Positions 6,555 to 37,004 of a stretch of DNA of 47,797 bases are shown here, in pieces. Under the pieces are notes generated by a model. That model saw only the letters and a list, made by a program, of their open reading frames with translations. It was not told the origin of the DNA and ran no database searches. The position numbers and the translations under genes were made by a program. Positions within the stretch are counted from its first letter, which is position 1. Every line of letters begins with the position of its first letter. The stretch lies in UHGV virus genome UHGV-0177318; one strand, given 5' to 3'. This DNA is from a virus.

Positions 6555-7139
6555 ATGTCGATAAAAGGTCTTGAGCAGGCGATTGCTAACCTGAATAGCC
6601 TGGACAGAAATATGGTTCCCAATGCCAGCGCATGGGCTGTGAACCGGGTTGCTGCTAATGGCGTCTCGGTTGCCGTCCGAAGAGTGGCGAAAGAAACGGT
6701 AGCCGGTGATAACCGCGTTTCGGGGATACCTGTAAAGCTGGTCAGACAAAGGGTGAGAATCAACAAAGCCTCGGCGTCAGGGCACTCAGCGGCCCGAATT
6801 AAGGTTAACCGGGGCAACCTTCCCGCCATCAAACTCGGTGCCGCGCAGGTCAGGGCTACGAACCGAAAAGGCCCGCTGGTTCGAAAAAGTAGCGTGCTGA
6901 GAATTGGCCGTTATGTTTTTCGCGACGCCTTTATCCAGCGCCTGGCGAACGGCCGCTGGCACGTCATGAAGCGCATTGCAGGAAAAAGTCGTTATCCCAT
7001 CGACGTGGTCAAAATCCCATTGTCCGCGCCCCTCACTACTGCTTTCGAAGCAGAGAAGAAACGCATGCTTGAAGAGGAAATGCCAAAACAACTTGGCTAT
7101 GCCCTCAGGCAACAACTGAGGTTGCATCTGACACGATGA
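6555..7139 (+). CDS. Z: Tail completion protein (lambda gpZ-like)
   Basis: 194 aa. Motifs of lambda Z: MSIKGLEQAIANL, ARIKVNRGNLPAIKLG, NGRWHVMKRIAGKSRYPIDVVKIP, LGYALRQQLR. Confidence 0.9.
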   Translation: MSIKGLEQAIANLNSLDRNMVPNASAWAVNRVAANGVSVAVRRVAKETVAGDNRVSGIPVKLVRQRVRINKASASGHSAARIKVNRGNLPAIKLGAAQVRATNRKGPLVRKSSVLRIGRYVFRDAFIQRLANGRWHVMKRIAGKSRYPIDVVKIPLSAPLTTAFEAEKKRMLEEEMPKQLGYALRQQLRLHLTR

Positions 7140-7534
7140 AACACACTCTCATTCGCCAGAAAATTATTGATGTGCTTGAAGAGGCCATCGGGATCGACGT
7201 CATGTTTTTTGACGGGCGTCCGGCTGTCATTGAGGAGGAGGATTTTCCTGCCGTCGCGGTCTATCTGACCGATGCGGAGTATACCGGCGAAGAACTTGAT
7301 GCCGATATGTGGGCGGCAACGTTACATATCGAGGTCTTCCTGTCATCGCAGGTACCAGATTCCGAACTGGATGAATGGATGGAAAGCCATATCTATCCGG
7401 CCCTCGCTGATGTTCCCGGCCTCGATTCACTGTTAACGCTCATGGTTCCACAAGGCTTCGATTACCAGCGCGATGATGCGATGGGGCTGTGGACCTCCGC
7501 CGATATGAAATATTCAATCACTTACGAAATGTGA
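7136..7534 (+). CDS. U: Tail terminator protein (lambda gpU-like)
   Basis: 132 aa. [52 protein letters not shown] matches lambda U. Confidence 0.93.
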
Positions 7535-32390: not shown

Positions 32391-32762
32391 TCACTGTGCC
32401 GCTTTAAGCTTTCCGTCAACGCCGCCGTTGATCCCGAACAGCTGCCCCTGATCTTCCTGCAGTATGGTCAGCTTGCCGCCTTTGTTAACCCACATTGGTG
32501 TTTCGGTGGTGTCTTCTTCGGAGGCTTTACCGCGCGGGGTTGGGGTGACGTAGTTCAGCTTGTGCTTGATCTTGACGCGCTTCTCTTCGACGGAGTTACC
32601 CATACGCTCAATATCAAAGGTGAGGACTACTTTGCCTTTGGTACCGTTGTTCAGAACGCCAAGCGCGGTAGTGTTTAAAGCTGCCGCGATCTTGTTCATG
32701 AACACGCCGGCATCCAGTTCGCCCAGGAAATCGGGCACTACGGTCATGCGGTCACTACTCAT
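32391..32762 (-). CDS. Hypothetical protein, first ORF of the early-left operon
   Basis: 123 aa with an ATG start preceded by GAGAGGG. Confidence 0.55.
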   Translation of the reverse strand: MSSDRMTVVPDFLGELDAGVFMNKIAAALNTTALGVLNNGTKGKVVLTFDIERMGNSVEEKRVKIKHKLNYVTPTPRGKASEEDTTETPMWVNKGGKLTILQEDQGQLFGINGGVDGKLKAAQ

Positions 32763-32925
32763 GGTTTAACCCTCTCTGAGGCGGCTGCCACCGCCAGTGG
32801 AACTTCTCCATACACAACAGAAAAGGGCACCTGCGCTTCGGCTATGGTTAGGAGGTCCATTTCCATAGCGCCCGGGTGGATTGGGGAATGAGCCCGTCGC
32901 CCGGTGATGCCCTTGTCTCTTGTGT

Positions 32926-32953
32926 AAAAAAGGTGCCCACCGATGTGATGGGC
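32926..32953 (-). terminator. Intrinsic terminator inside the pL leader (second)
   Basis: Minus-strand RNA: GCCCAUC-acauc-GGUGGGC, then acc and U6. Confidence 0.7.
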
Positions 32954-33190
32954 AAAGACTACACACAGCAATGATTTTGTTGTGGCGGTGGTGCCTCCAC
33001 CTGCCGGGCCGGCCAGAACCGGCGACGCTACACCTCAAGAAACGTATTCATTTCAAAAGTTGAAATAAAAACTTGTTGGCCTCGTCACGTGCGCAGAGCC
33101 GCATTACCACAACTGGAAGCGCACTACTTCGGTAACAAACCTGCCCCCGCAGTGAAAGAGAGAAGGAGTGCGCTTTCACGTTGTGCCCTT

Positions 33191-33232
33191 AAAAAGCTGG
33201 CTGTCACCCTCAAGGGGAAAGTGAGCAGCCAG
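33191..33232 (-). terminator. Intrinsic terminator inside the pL leader (first)
   Basis: Minus-strand RNA: CUGGCUG...CAGCCAG (7-bp outer stem plus inner pairs), followed by c and U5. Confidence 0.6.
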
Positions 33233-33299
33233 AACAGGGATCACGTCTTATTGCTTTGGCCTGCTTTTAACCACATCAGGCGCGGTGGTTTGGTGTCGA

Positions 33300-33375
33300 C
33301 AGAAAAAAATCTAACTTAACTTAGTTTATTGGTCAAGTGAAAACATCAAACTAAACTTAGCTTGATGCTTAGAGG
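33300..33375 (-). promoter_or_regulatory. pL / OL region
   Basis: On the minus strand, -35 TTGACC (33336..33331), a 17-nt spacer, and -10 TAGATT (33313..33308). Operator-like elements share CTAAG/CTTAG and ATCTAAC with OR (33309..33315; 33347..33364, an 18-bp imperfect palindrome). Confidence 0.55.
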
Positions 33376-33390: not shown

Positions 33391-34017
33391 TTAGAGTTCG
33401 TACTGAACGCCTTTAACTACGCCAATAATGAGGCAGTTACCATTGATCGGGATGTTGGGGTAGCGAGGATTTAGTGGGACTAAAAATTTTTGTGGGCCAT
33501 CAATGACCAGTTTTTTAACAGTCGCTTCGTTAGTGCCATCAATACGCGCAACAACAATCTTGCCATGAAGGGGTTCGGCATCTGGATCAACAATAACGGT
33601 TGCCCCTTCAGGGATTGTTGGGAGGCCATTTGGATTGGTCATTGAATCCCCTTTGACCTCTAAAGCGAACGAGCTATCCCCAATGCGTAGTGATGTTTCA
33701 ACCCATTTATCAACATCACTGAATAAATCAGCGGCCTTACATTCCGTAAACTGCCCAGCTTGAACCCAGGAAATCACGGGCACACGCCTCATTTTAGTTA
33801 TGAGGGTACCTTCAAATTCAGTGCCGTAAAGAATGTAATCTATTGATGTATTGAAGAATTTAGCCAGCTTAACCAGCGATTCTCCGTTTGGGATATTCAC
33901 ATCCTTTTCCCAATAACCCACCGCTACGTCACTAACCCCGCAGAACTTACCCAGTTCTTTTTGAGAGGTTTTTGTAACCCTGCGTAGGGCTTTAATGCGC
34001 TGACCAACCGTTTCCAT
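33391..34017 (-). CDS. cI: CI-type prophage repressor (XRE HTH + S24 LexA-like self-cleaving domain)
   Basis: 208 aa. HTH QKELGKFCGVSDVAVGYWEKD, Ala-Gly site in SWVQAGQF, Ser/Lys dyad GDSM ... VKKL. Divergent from cro. Confidence 0.9.
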   Translation of the reverse strand: METVGQRIKALRRVTKTSQKELGKFCGVSDVAVGYWEKDVNIPNGESLVKLAKFFNTSIDYILYGTEFEGTLITKMRRVPVISWVQAGQFTECKAADLFSDVDKWVETSLRIGDSSFALEVKGDSMTNPNGLPTIPEGATVIVDPDAEPLHGKIVVARIDGTNEATVKKLVIDGPQKFLVPLNPRYPNIPINGNCLIIGVVKGVQYEL

Positions 34018-34116
34018 GAAAGCACCAAATTTAAAAAAGACTAAGTAATCTTAGTTTTTATTGACCAAAGTTAGATTGGTTATTAATATCTAACCAAACT
34101 TAGCTAAGGAGGCTTC
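34018..34116. promoter_or_regulatory. OR / pR / pRM divergent control region
   Basis: Palindromes ACTAAGTAATCTTAGT (34040..34055), GTTAGAT-N11-ATCTAAC (34070..34094) and CTTAGCTAAG (34099..34108). Candidate pR: -35 TTGACC (34061..34066), 17 nt, -10 TAATAT (34084..34089). Confidence 0.6.
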
Positions 34117-34332
34117 ATGACAACCGACGAGATTGAACAACATTTCGGCAGCACTGAGAAAGTTGCCGAATTTTTTGGCATCACCAGTGAGGCCGTTTAC
34201 CAGTGGCGTAATCGCCCCGGACGCTTAATCCCTAAAGGACGAGCTGCTGAAGCTGCGTATCGAACTGCTGGTGAACTGGAATTCAACCCAGAACGTTATG
34301 GCAAGAATACATCGCCTAACGATCAGAAATAA
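34117..34332 (+). CDS. cro: Cro-type repressor (P22 Cro-like)
   Basis: 71 aa. IEQHFGSTEKVAEFFGITSEAVYQWRNR..IP parallels P22 Cro (VIDHFGTQRAVAKALGISDAAVSQWKEVIP). SD AAGGAGG. Confidence 0.8.
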   Translation: MTTDEIEQHFGSTEKVAEFFGITSEAVYQWRNRPGRLIPKGRAAEAAYRTAGELEFNPERYGKNTSPNDQK

Positions 34333-36108: not shown

Positions 36109-37004
36109 TGAGCATGAATGCTGATAACAAATATTGCCGCGCGCTGGCTGAACTGCGCTCAAAGCCAGCGCATGAATTGAAAGAAGTTGGCGATCAGTGG
36201 CGCACTCCGGATTTGTTGTTTTGGGGCATCAATTCGATATTTGGGCCGATGGTTCTGGATCTGTTTGCAGACGATAGCAATACTAAATGCCCTGCATGGT
36301 ACACCGCCGAAGATAACGCGCTGACGCAGGACTGGTCAGAGCGTCTGGCAGAACTCGGTGGCGCCGCGTTTGCAAATCCGCCATATAGCCGTTCTCAGTA
36401 CCATGAAAAGCAGGCCATCACTGGCATGACCCACATCATGAATCACACAATGGCGATGCGTGATAAAGGTGGTCGTTACATATACCTCGTGAAGTCAGCC
36501 ACAAGTGAAACATGGTGGCCGGAAGATGCCGATCACATCATGTTTATTCGTGGTCGTATTGGGTTCGATCTTCCTATTTGGTTTGTTCCCGCTGACGAGA
36601 AGCAGCAACCCACCAGCGCATTTTTTGCCGGGGCAATCGCTGTCTTCGACAAAACCTGGCGTGGTGAAAGCTTCAGCTATATCAATCGCACCGAACTGGA
36701 AGAAAAAGGGCGTGCAGCATTGTCATTGGCTCAATTCGCCGCGGCAAAAATGGCCCTTTCGTCGGTGCCGGAAAAAGCAATGCCTACTCCCATTGCAACG
36801 GCTGATGCAGAGTCGCGCATCTGGCCGCTGGAGGTTGGTCTGGTATTCAATCAGGTCAAGGGGGCGGATTCTCTGGGCGTGAACCAACAGAACAAGTTGA
36901 AGGCCAACATCAACCAACTCTGGCTGGAGCGTGTGCCTACCAGCGAAATAATTAGCGTGGCCGGTGGTCTGGTTAGCAGCATGCAGGGGGCCGTCAATGC
37001 GTGA
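36105..37004 (+). CDS. Phage Dam-family N6-adenine DNA methyltransferase
   Basis: 299 aa. WRTPDLLF near the N-terminus and catalytic FANPPYS. Confidence 0.8.
   Translation: MMSMNADNKYCRALAELRSKPAHELKEVGDQWRTPDLLFWGINSIFGPMVLDLFADDSNTKCPAWYTAEDNALTQDWSERLAELGGAAFANPPYSRSQYHEKQAITGMTHIMNHTMAMRDKGGRYIYLVKSATSETWWPEDADHIMFIRGRIGFDLPIWFVPADEKQQPTSAFFAGAIAVFDKTWRGESFSYINRTELEEKGRAALSLAQFAAAKMALSSVPEKAMPTPIATADAESRIWPLEVGLVFNQVKGADSLGVNQQNKLKANINQLWLERVPTSEIISVAGGLVSSMQGAVNA

Follow-up and report, generated by a model that had tools for sequence, protein, structure and literature searches.

A modular non-coding early-left leader in a lambdoid phage contains a candidate small RNA related to the 3' half of RprA

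What purpose is served by a long RNA that holds two terminators ahead of the early-left genes of a lambdoid phage, when the phage has neither an N gene nor nut-type sites? The question is raised by the virus genome UHGV-0177318 (the whole stretch of 47,797 nucleotides (nt) that was analysed is called the window below), and specifically by its minus-strand interval from the pL promoter to yfdP, the leader studied here. This leader is ~540 nt long and contains no conserved open reading frame (ORF), and two hairpin-plus-U terminators lie ahead of yfdP. An initial annotation had suggested that it could hold an antiterminator RNA resembling the put elements of HK022, a riboregulator or attenuator, or a stable non-coding RNA. 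The interval is a non-coding modular leader RNA, and not one single riboregulator. Judged by sequence and homology, it appears best filed as a phage-encoded Hfq-type small RNA (sRNA) embedded in a terminator-controlled early leader.

The elements of N/nut antitermination, an N gene beside pL together with boxA and boxB in the leader, are missing. No boxA-like site was found on the transcribed strand of the leader (matches across the window are below chance), and a Pfam scan found no N-like gene; YfdP itself belongs to no Pfam family, and its N terminus is not rich in arginine. Across the leader region the phage is ~96% identical to Escherichia phage LLS (PQ299149), the description of which likewise reports no N homologue (PMC12315714), in line with the initial annotation, which had seen neither boxA nor N. 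The leader is also as highly structured as had been supposed, folding at -215 kcal/mol against -183 +/- 6 kcal/mol for dinucleotide shuffles (z = -5.05; none of the 100 folds as well). It had been called GC-rich as well, which holds relative to the immunity region (36-45%) but not relative to the window (54.3% in the leader, 52% in the window).

Six modules make up the leader. In a local blastn of the leader against the loci, the number of loci sharing each part of the leader shifts stepwise, and motif maps show that the modules recur in many orders and combinations across the early-left leaders of Enterobacterales lambdoid prophages. In order of transcription, they are as follows.

33259..33290, minus strand: module PK, a 5' hairpin and possible H-type pseudoknot, identified by interphage homology and pairing analysis.
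33191..33232, minus strand: terminator T1, CUGGCUG.CUCAC...GUGAC.AGCCAG then C and U5 (-21.4 kcal/mol, z = -2.8).
33115..33177, minus strand: module H, hairpin GAAAGCGCACU...AGUGCGCUUCC, conserved at its base and variable inside (-25.6 kcal/mol, z = -2.5).
32979..33113, minus strand: degenerate tRNA-like domain (Cup-C), with closing stem GUUGUGG (33113-33107) / CCACAAC (32985-32979).
32926..32972, minus strand: module R, the RprA 3'-half homologue and second terminator, with core or seed AUUGCUGUGUGUAGUCUUUGCCC (32972-32950), a hairpin (32954-32934), then CC and U6.
32812..32925, minus strand: domain D, a three-way junction that starts at the base after the R U-run (-68.7 kcal/mol, z = -4.55).

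The stems named in the initial annotation are all present, namely AAGCGCACU/AGUGCGCUU at 33175-33117, GCUAUGG/CCAUAGC inside D and GGCGG/CCGCC at 32795-32780.

Module R is related by homology to the 3' half of the sRNA RprA. An exact 26-mer, AUUGCUGUGUGUAGUCUUUGCCCAUC (32972..32947), is common to R and E. coli RprA (sequence from PMC5606850), with a hairpin and a U-run next in both, and no part of the RprA family consensus is more conserved than the stretch that they have in common. Rfam has zero matches over the whole window at gathering thresholds, but a permissive scan aligns 33061..32925 to RprA (RF00034) at 42.2 bits (E = 0.0012; gathering score 70). This alignment spans model positions 1-108, and its 3' 50 nt are near-identical to the family consensus; among other phage copies, compact relatives score 52-56 bits. 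Of 5426 complete E. coli genomes, 5424 give a blastn alignment of R to their annotated rprA gene, and ~576 extra places, which are prophage copies, align as well. The window copy possesses the core and intrinsic terminator of RprA (the 26-nt exact block, an 8-bp hairpin and U6) and does not possess the 5' stem-loops or the region that pairs with the rpoS leader; its alignment contains a 44-nt unrelated insertion, and the CCCCUGAGUGAAACAACGAA stretch is absent. CCCCUGA is retained in certain other phage copies of R. RprA connects envelope stress with RpoS, with curli/biofilm and, in Salmonella, with conjugation. Neither H nor D follows rprA at its chromosomal locus, and there is thus no sign that rprA is a prophage remnant. 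A consensus scan of the window found no promoter belonging to R; the A/U-rich stretch upstream was considered as one and rejected, being a covarying hairpin. No published description of a phage RprA-like RNA was found in a literature search that was incomplete, so that an earlier description is possible.

The exact 23-mer core of R is present in >120 IMG/VR contigs among the matches listed, preceded by many unrelated sequences, none of which is a genuine rprA 5' half. The 14-nt seed within it, UGCUGUGUGUAGUC, is invariant in 142 loci; 47 different hairpins come next, all of which fold and all of which precede at least five U residues. To avoid circularity, a further set of leaders was gathered via the YfdP protein without reference to R, from 65 species in genera that include Enterobacter, Mixta, Citrobacter, Klebsiella, Erwinia, Serratia, Yersinia and Proteus. 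A long ORF-free gap between a cI-like gene and yfdP is the rule in this set. The seed is kept in 16 of the 65 leaders, with quite different terminator stems, and variant seeds stand at the same position in others, such as AUUGCUGUGCUGUGUCUUU in Yersinia. An invariant single-stranded stretch beside a freely varying hairpin is the pattern expected of a base-pairing sRNA seed, and not of a mere terminator. Within the phage, no antisense match to the seed was found at three or fewer mismatches, and the best duplexes (-20.3 to -20.6 kcal/mol) are equal to those of shuffled seeds (mean -20.9 kcal/mol); the lack of an in-phage target beyond chance points to targets in the host. The R core and terminator are also found in virulent N4-like Erwinia phages, among them the strictly virulent Ea9-2 (L194 700..745), where they come right behind the stop codon of thymidylate synthase, as well as in jumbo Erwinia phages (pEa_SNUABM, ~204 kb) and in Cronobacter phiES15.

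Several loci with R-like sequences have features of their own. In Ea9-2, an annotated 'hypothetical protein', Ea92_47A, begins right after the R core and terminator. In ten loci (L133, L139, L143, L149, L159, L161, L163, L172, L178 and L185), a long terminator hairpin, GGCGG...CCGCC with U5, comes after the seed and sits ~200-300 nt upstream of yfdP in many genera. The interior of this hairpin is strongly conserved (CUUCAAC..AACACCAGGAG..GAAGAUAAUGUUCUG) and constitutes an unexplained conserved RNA motif; some copies resemble a Shine-Dalgarno sequence with a 10-codon ORF, the AUG of which is lost in Providencia. In L011 (~7000..7500, core-oriented), at least six GGGAAAGACCG-like repeats flank the RprA-like unit, and a canonical T-loop, CCGGUUCGAUUCCGG, lies just 5' of the seed; this copy has the top RprA score among phage copies, 56 bits. 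Finally, L079 (9444..9652) contains two RprA-like cores, inverted, around a D-like helix at a contig end, which may be either a real palindrome or an assembly artefact.

Immediately upstream of R is the tRNA-like domain, in which a hairpin in the position of a T arm, GGC(A)GGUGG-AGGCA-CCACCGCC (33005-32984), adjoins the closing stem. No tRNA match was found in the window, either with Rfam RF00005 at E values up to 10 or with ARAGORN (tRNA or tmRNA). However, positional equivalents do pass the Rfam tRNA threshold (29), at 40.3 bits in Yersinia (L157) and 35.9 bits in Proteus (L180), and in both cases the tRNA-scoring element abuts the 5' side of the seed. When 12 homologues are aligned, the 8-bp closing stem and its neighbouring hairpin are preserved, and three pairs show compensatory change. 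Because homologues pass the tRNA model and the stems are conserved while the window copy fails, the domain is considered tRNA-derived or tRNA-like, and not a tRNA. This module is also found in virulent Klebsiella Lastavirus phages (SopranoGao, L127 150..700, minus strand; ZX1; LASTA; SJM3) as two to three tandem copies, GUUGUGGU...CACCACAAC, in an unannotated stretch near the genome end, with another tRNA-looking sequence beside them; ARAGORN calls none of these a tRNA, and it found no tRNA or tmRNA in SopranoGao or, at the module position, in 30 related loci. The tRNA-like module of a Buttiauxella prophage (L137 2322..2437) gives a sub-threshold Rfam match to STnc100 (34.7 bits, gathering score 47), a prophage-associated sRNA family recently linked to PasD. 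This resemblance hints that STnc100/PasD and the tRNA-like leader modules may be related.

Module H, which precedes the tRNA-like domain, has a base conserved as GAAAGCGCA...UGCGCUYCC. It recurs in dozens of loci, invariably either 6-13 nt after a terminator U-run (of T1 or R) or directly after PK. Variants of its stem, a few of them compensatory, include ACGCAUU/AGUGCGU, GCCGAUC/GGUCGGU and GUGCAUU/AGUGCAC; a regular-expression search for H variants was noisy, and only a handful of true variants were usable.

Taken together, these features suggest a model in which pL transcripts that end at leaky terminators would yield an RprA-like Hfq-type sRNA and those that read through would become early-left mRNA, a proposal for and against which the chances appear evenly balanced. 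On loss of the repressor, RNA polymerase from pL would meet two imperfect terminators, T1 and R, and a share of the transcripts would stop at each. Those ended at R could then be trimmed to an RNA of ~50 nt that begins at or just 5' of AUUGCUG, potentially by RNase E at the A/U-rich junction 5' of that sequence, and by RNase P acting on the upstream tRNA-like minihelix. The homology to RprA, and that among phage contexts, starts at this A/U-rich junction with U at +2, matching the preference of RNase E for A/U-rich single-stranded RNA that has U at +2 (PMC6202311). The trimmed RNA would be organised like sRNAs that bind Hfq, with a seed, a U-rich stretch, a hairpin and 3' oligo-U, and might pair with host targets of the conserved RprA core, so that part of the RprA (envelope-stress, biofilm) regulon would come within reach of the phage. 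Read-through would produce the yfdP...xis-int mRNA, which would begin with the structured domain D; D may serve in processing or in the control of translation. The stable non-coding RNA of the initial annotation gains support from the homology of R to the 3' half of the Hfq-dependent RprA and from the conserved seed. An attenuator that gates the left operon, as the initial annotation also proposed, would be compatible with these data. A more far-reaching joint claim, that lambdoid, N4-like and jumbo phages carry a portable RprA 3' half that is released by termination and tRNA-like-guided processing and hijacks the RprA regulon, and that in N-less, put-less phages of the present type PK represents a new class of small cis-acting antiterminator and D an initiator-tRNA decoy, is rather doubtful in its entirety.

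Several considerations weigh against the sRNA model. The RprA score of the window copy is below the family gathering threshold, and, since both the RprA 5' stem-loop and the rpoS-pairing region are missing, the best-known function of RprA could not be reproduced by R. The short form of RprA is reportedly active (Papenfort et al. 2015, on this form and ricI). With no promoter of its own and a location behind T1, R would depend for its output on read-through of T1. The degeneracy of the window tRNA-like copy makes the involvement of RNase P speculative, and H and PK carry no assigned function. More generally, we infer termination, processing, Hfq binding and trans-action of R alike from sequence.

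The model requires that the terminators be leaky, and their geometry bears on this. Both T1 and R have the GC-rich hairpin and U-run of an intrinsic terminator, and both had been recognised in the initial annotation (at 33232..33191 and 32953..32926). T1 was recovered by folding, a terminator scan having passed it over owing to an interior C.C mismatch; relative to other phages it is an insertion between PK and H, which elsewhere abut (CAGGCACACAACAUGAAAGC). The scan did find the R terminator (32954..32934), with 8 bp (5 GC), a 5-nt loop, and then CC and U6 (32931-32926). With one or two C residues between stem and U-run, neither T1 nor R has ideal terminator geometry, and their efficiency is uncertain. 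The gap between the R stem and the U-run is 1-2 nt in 50 of 52 PK-type loci and 0 nt in 21 of 21 put loci, a correlation that is not phylogenetically independent and to that extent also counts against the model. No further strong terminator was found between yfdP and the terminator after int, and a dedicated antiterminator would therefore not strictly be needed. The spacing at R and T1 and the lack of a further strong terminator in the left operon would favor leakiness over obligatory antitermination.

The opposite possibility, that the leader overcomes its terminators by means of an antiterminator RNA, was examined with a covariance model built from HK022 putL, HK022 putR and HK639 putL (consensus GAACGGCGCG...GUCGG...GGCGGG.UCAGGA.GA.CGGCAAU; two stems; ~70 nt). 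The window gives no better than 11.7 and 11.2 bits (E = 2.7-3.5), at 36715 and 29745, both outside the leader, whereas 21 out of 189 related loci reach 46-76 bits with this model. Rfam holds no family for put, nor for PK, H or D. The leader was therefore rejected as an HK022-type put RNA, and what survives of the put-like antiterminator of the initial annotation is a positional argument for PK. The 21 matches elsewhere are in uncultivated viral contigs, directly 3' of a sigma-70 promoter (L009, L012, L021, L024, L029, L030, L034, L037, L042, L044, L046, L069, L070, L072, L087, L091, L092, L096, L103, L108 and L113), and these elements look like new members of the put family. The order at such loci is a sigma-70 promoter (pL), putL, sometimes a tRNA-like element and a small ORF, R, H and then genes, and the second terminator type of the window would, by this arrangement, be the natural first early-left terminator of genuine put phages.

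In the window, the position just 3' of pL and ahead of the terminators is held not by put but by PK (33290-33259), a placement that does not in itself make PK a put RNA. PK consists of S1, AACCAC (33290-33285) / GUGGUU (33274-33269), and S2, GCCUG (33281-33277) / CAGGC (33263-33259), with an A-rich linking loop. Its pairing is kept at 90% in ~20 sequence variants, compared with 28-42% when the partners are slid; compensatory change is confined to two or three pairs (GCCGGG/CCCGGC, GCCGGA/UCCGGC and GCCUGA/UCAGGC). This covariation is not significant, as 38-103 of 500 shuffles do equally well, and a claim of a pseudoknot by covariation was dropped because its support was too weak. In compact relatives, promoter, PK, R and terminator form a ~105-nt unit, for which an alignment over the full length of the RprA model scores 52 bits, and PK may thus simply be the 5' stem-loop of an RprA-like sRNA. 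The compact version is seen in L028, L045, L104, L111 and L046 (~-120 to +300 around the RprA-like core). Here a divergent promoter region with repeated CTGTAGGGGT boxes is followed by PK, R and H, and further downstream by a 60-aa membrane ORF and a ~300-aa ORF without a Pfam family; the divergent gene encodes a coiled-coil and zinc-ribbon-like protein of 174-190 aa, also without a Pfam family.

These observations bear on four alternatives to the sRNA model. PK, alone or with H, might be a new protein-independent antiterminator, analogous to put but unrelated to it in sequence, for read-through of T1 and R, which would then be efficient terminators that make the operon PK-dependent. PK does occupy the putL position, ~10-25 nt past the predicted start in at least five immunity types, and homology among phages of different immunity begins precisely there; related phages with the same R-H module downstream use a genuine put at this position, PK and put never precede the same R with one exception (L046), and put is found in 0 of the 65 yfdP-type leaders, all of which are long and terminator-bearing and none of which has an N gene. 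The conserved pairing of PK, with its few compensatory variants, also speaks for this role. A put-like mechanism has moreover been voiced already, as speculation, by the authors of the LLS paper (PMC12315714). However, PK resembles put in neither sequence nor structure, its ~32 nt contrast with ~70 nt and two long stems in put, and its covariation is nonsignificant, as described above. The compact loci fit an sRNA 5' structure equally well, both window terminators are geometrically weakened, no downstream terminators call for processive modification, and a cis element of this kind would antiterminate pRM-cI read-through in lysogens too. An antiterminator role for PK seems unlikely. An attenuator or insulator without any trans role is improbable as well. 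In such a leader, T1 would end the pRM-cI transcript in lysogens, T1 and R would damp pL, and the likeness to RprA would reflect a shared terminator cassette. Reading of the sequence and the terminator scan found no terminator between the cI stop codon and T1, which would make T1 the first possible stop for pRM-cI transcripts, and R can serve as the 3' end of protein genes, with ORFs that end 2-24 nt before it in L012, L024, L029, L032 and Ea9-2; the absence of a seed target in the phage beyond chance also argues for a terminator cassette. Set against this, the hairpin varies (47 versions), yet the 14-23 nt upstream of it are invariant across contexts, genera and lifestyles and coincide with the most conserved part of the RprA consensus, the signature of a sequence-specific partner.

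That the leader encodes one or more small proteins is barely credible. Sense ORFs of 43-90 codons with TTG or GTG starts do exist, and under the match in phages Flotzy and Eeyore other annotators have placed four to five hypothetical proteins, but these frames have neither an ATG start nor a Shine-Dalgarno sequence. The ORF list contains no ATG-started sense ORF of at least 20 aa within the leader, in agreement with the initial annotation, which had seen no credible ORF in ~540 nt. The longest frame (90 codons, TTG start) remains open for 60 codons or more in only 7 of the 62 leaders compared, and the other two frames do equally well, on which grounds the small-protein reading was rejected; indels among the homologues are not multiples of three, and substitutions track base pairing and not codons. 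It is highly improbable, too, that the leader is non-functional debris made up of decayed tRNA genes and recombination scars from mosaic exchange. Module order does vary between phages, the window tRNA-like copy no longer scores as a tRNA and T1 resembles an insertion. Each module is nevertheless conserved across genera, D and the closing and T-position stems of the tRNA-like domain show compensatory changes, the leader folds far better than its shuffles, and long ORF-free leaders are the rule in the 65 species. The sRNA model is the preferred interpretation. The initial annotation was borne out in its anatomy of the region and in its non-coding RNA idea and not in the put family, and it had missed the RprA homology, the tRNA-like domain, D and the mosaic build.

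Covariance analysis of homologous leaders lends strong support to domain D. Its closing helix joins 32925-32906 with 32831-32812, and the second arm is a variable hairpin. In 25 leaders from many genera, 89.8% of cells are paired, as opposed to 40-53% with the partners slid, 14 pairs are changed on both sides, and 0 of 500 shuffles are as good. The arm tip GGGCUCAUUCCCC (32895-32883) is a look-alike of the initiator-tRNA anticodon stem-loop, and the loop motif GG(C/U)UCAUNNCC is present in 28 of the 65 yfdP-anchored leaders. In most relatives (L128-L187), the tip reads CGGGCUCAUAACCC, a 14-nt match to the E. coli tRNA-fMet anticodon stem-loop (sequence verified) that comprises three G-C pairs and the loop CUCAUAA. 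That the tip is a mimic or decoy for a recogniser of the initiator anticodon arm (the 30S P site with IF3, MetRS or VapC-type anticodon nucleases) is pure speculation. A 62-nt piece of D (32869..32930) matches prophages in ~2460 of 5426 complete E. coli genomes (~45%), always in the gap that separates yfdP from a gene for a LexA-family repressor, where the annotation reads 'none' or hypothetical protein. From these matches, D appears to be a very common unannotated RNA element.

The surroundings of the leader are those of a lambdoid phage, with the minus-strand order cI, leader, yfdP, yfdQ (DUF2303), a yfdR-like gene, further genes, xis and int; a CP76-type cII is oriented rightward, like cro. 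The features concerned are as follows.

34117..34332, rightward: Cro (Pfam P22_Cro).
34017..33391, minus strand: cI (Pfam Peptidase_S24 and helix-turn-helix).
33346-33360 and 33311-33324 (the latter overlapping the -10): two OL operator copies of a 14-bp motif, CTAAC/GTNAAYCTTAG (repeat family D1, inverted pairs I1 and I4).
33336..33308, minus strand: pL-like sigma-70 promoter from a consensus scan, with -35 TTGACC (33336-33331), a 17-nt spacer and -10 TAGATT (33313-33308).
32795-32780, minus strand: small hairpin GGCGGUGGCAGCCGCC, 98% paired (helix 5 of the covariation set) with two compensatory pairs.
32776-32770, minus strand: Shine-Dalgarno sequence GAGAGGG, then a spacer that ends at the start codon of yfdP (32762).
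32762..32391, minus strand: yfdP, the first early-left gene, from the ORF list and the LLS annotation.

The promoter is the one proposed in the initial annotation. It is the sole promoter of such type found by the consensus scan between cI and yfdP, it lies 55 nt 3' of the cI stop codon, and its predicted transcription start is near 33301-33299. It has a twin in pR (TTGACC-17-TAATAT at 34061-34089). The operator-like repeats that had been described as common to pL and OR are likewise found, with two copies of the 14-bp motif at pL and two to three at OR (34041-34054, 34090-34103).

Should R be expressed and active, the seed of a core-genome sRNA would have a homologue carried by temperate and virulent phages alike. 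This would point to a general phage strategy of borrowing a host post-transcriptional switch, and would bear on the origin of rprA. R is also recognised here as the terminator that comes first in the early-left unit of a large N-less lambdoid group that includes genuine put phages, providing the put field with natural terminator targets, and put-less relatives such as LLS, which can be cultured on E. coli K-12, form a set in which a different read-through mechanism could be sought. PK, H and D add conserved structured RNAs to those outside Rfam.

Among known systems, RprA itself is the closest, with 26-nt identity, a GC hairpin and oligo-U in the same order and spacing as at the RprA 3' end. 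The window copy differs in that it has no 5' stem-loop, second stem-loop or rpoS-pairing sequence, in its transcription from a repressor-controlled phage promoter within an mRNA leader, whereas rprA has an Rcs-regulated chromosomal promoter, and in its flanking tRNA-like domain, H and D, which the rprA locus does not have. The put RNAs of HK022 and HK639 are cis-acting, factor-independent antiterminators. The window resembles these systems as an N-less lambdoid phage with a structured RNA a few bases after pL and terminators next, but PK is half the size of put and might form a pseudoknot where put has two long stems. The lambda pL-nutL-N region also has an operator-controlled pL, a long structured leader and early-left terminators. 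The lambda leader contains the tL terminators, an RNase III site and a long helix just upstream of the ribosome-binding site of the first gene, a position that D takes in the window; cleavage of D by RNase III is a conjecture by analogy. Unlike lambda, the window has no N gene, boxA or boxB, and its ~540-nt leader contains an sRNA-like unit.

As with tRNA-linked and 3'UTR-derived Hfq sRNAs (3'ETS-leuZ, CpxQ, SroC and others of this type), the seed and terminator of R are found in the 3' trailer of a tRNA-like element (one that scores as tRNA in L157 and L180) or, in other phages, directly after a stop codon, which implies release by processing and not a dedicated promoter. R differs from this type in that its upstream element in the window is a decayed minihelix and not a functional tRNA, and in that R is embedded in a 5' leader, so that termination at R would also control downstream genes. 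Finally, AgvB, AsxR, StxS, DicF and the Pas sRNAs are prophage-encoded and interfere with host post-transcriptional networks (PMC4104026; PMC7547250; Pas preprint). Like R, they are short terminator-ended RNAs at conserved lambdoid prophage positions, but they are located in the late (PR'/Q) region or the dicB operon, whereas R is in the early-left leader; the Pas/STnc100 sRNAs were rejected as relatives of R, being unrelated and of late-region location. None of these RNAs is homologous to the seed of a core sRNA. AgvB mimics a target, whereas R carries a host sRNA sequence in the same sense, and R occurs in virulent phages too.

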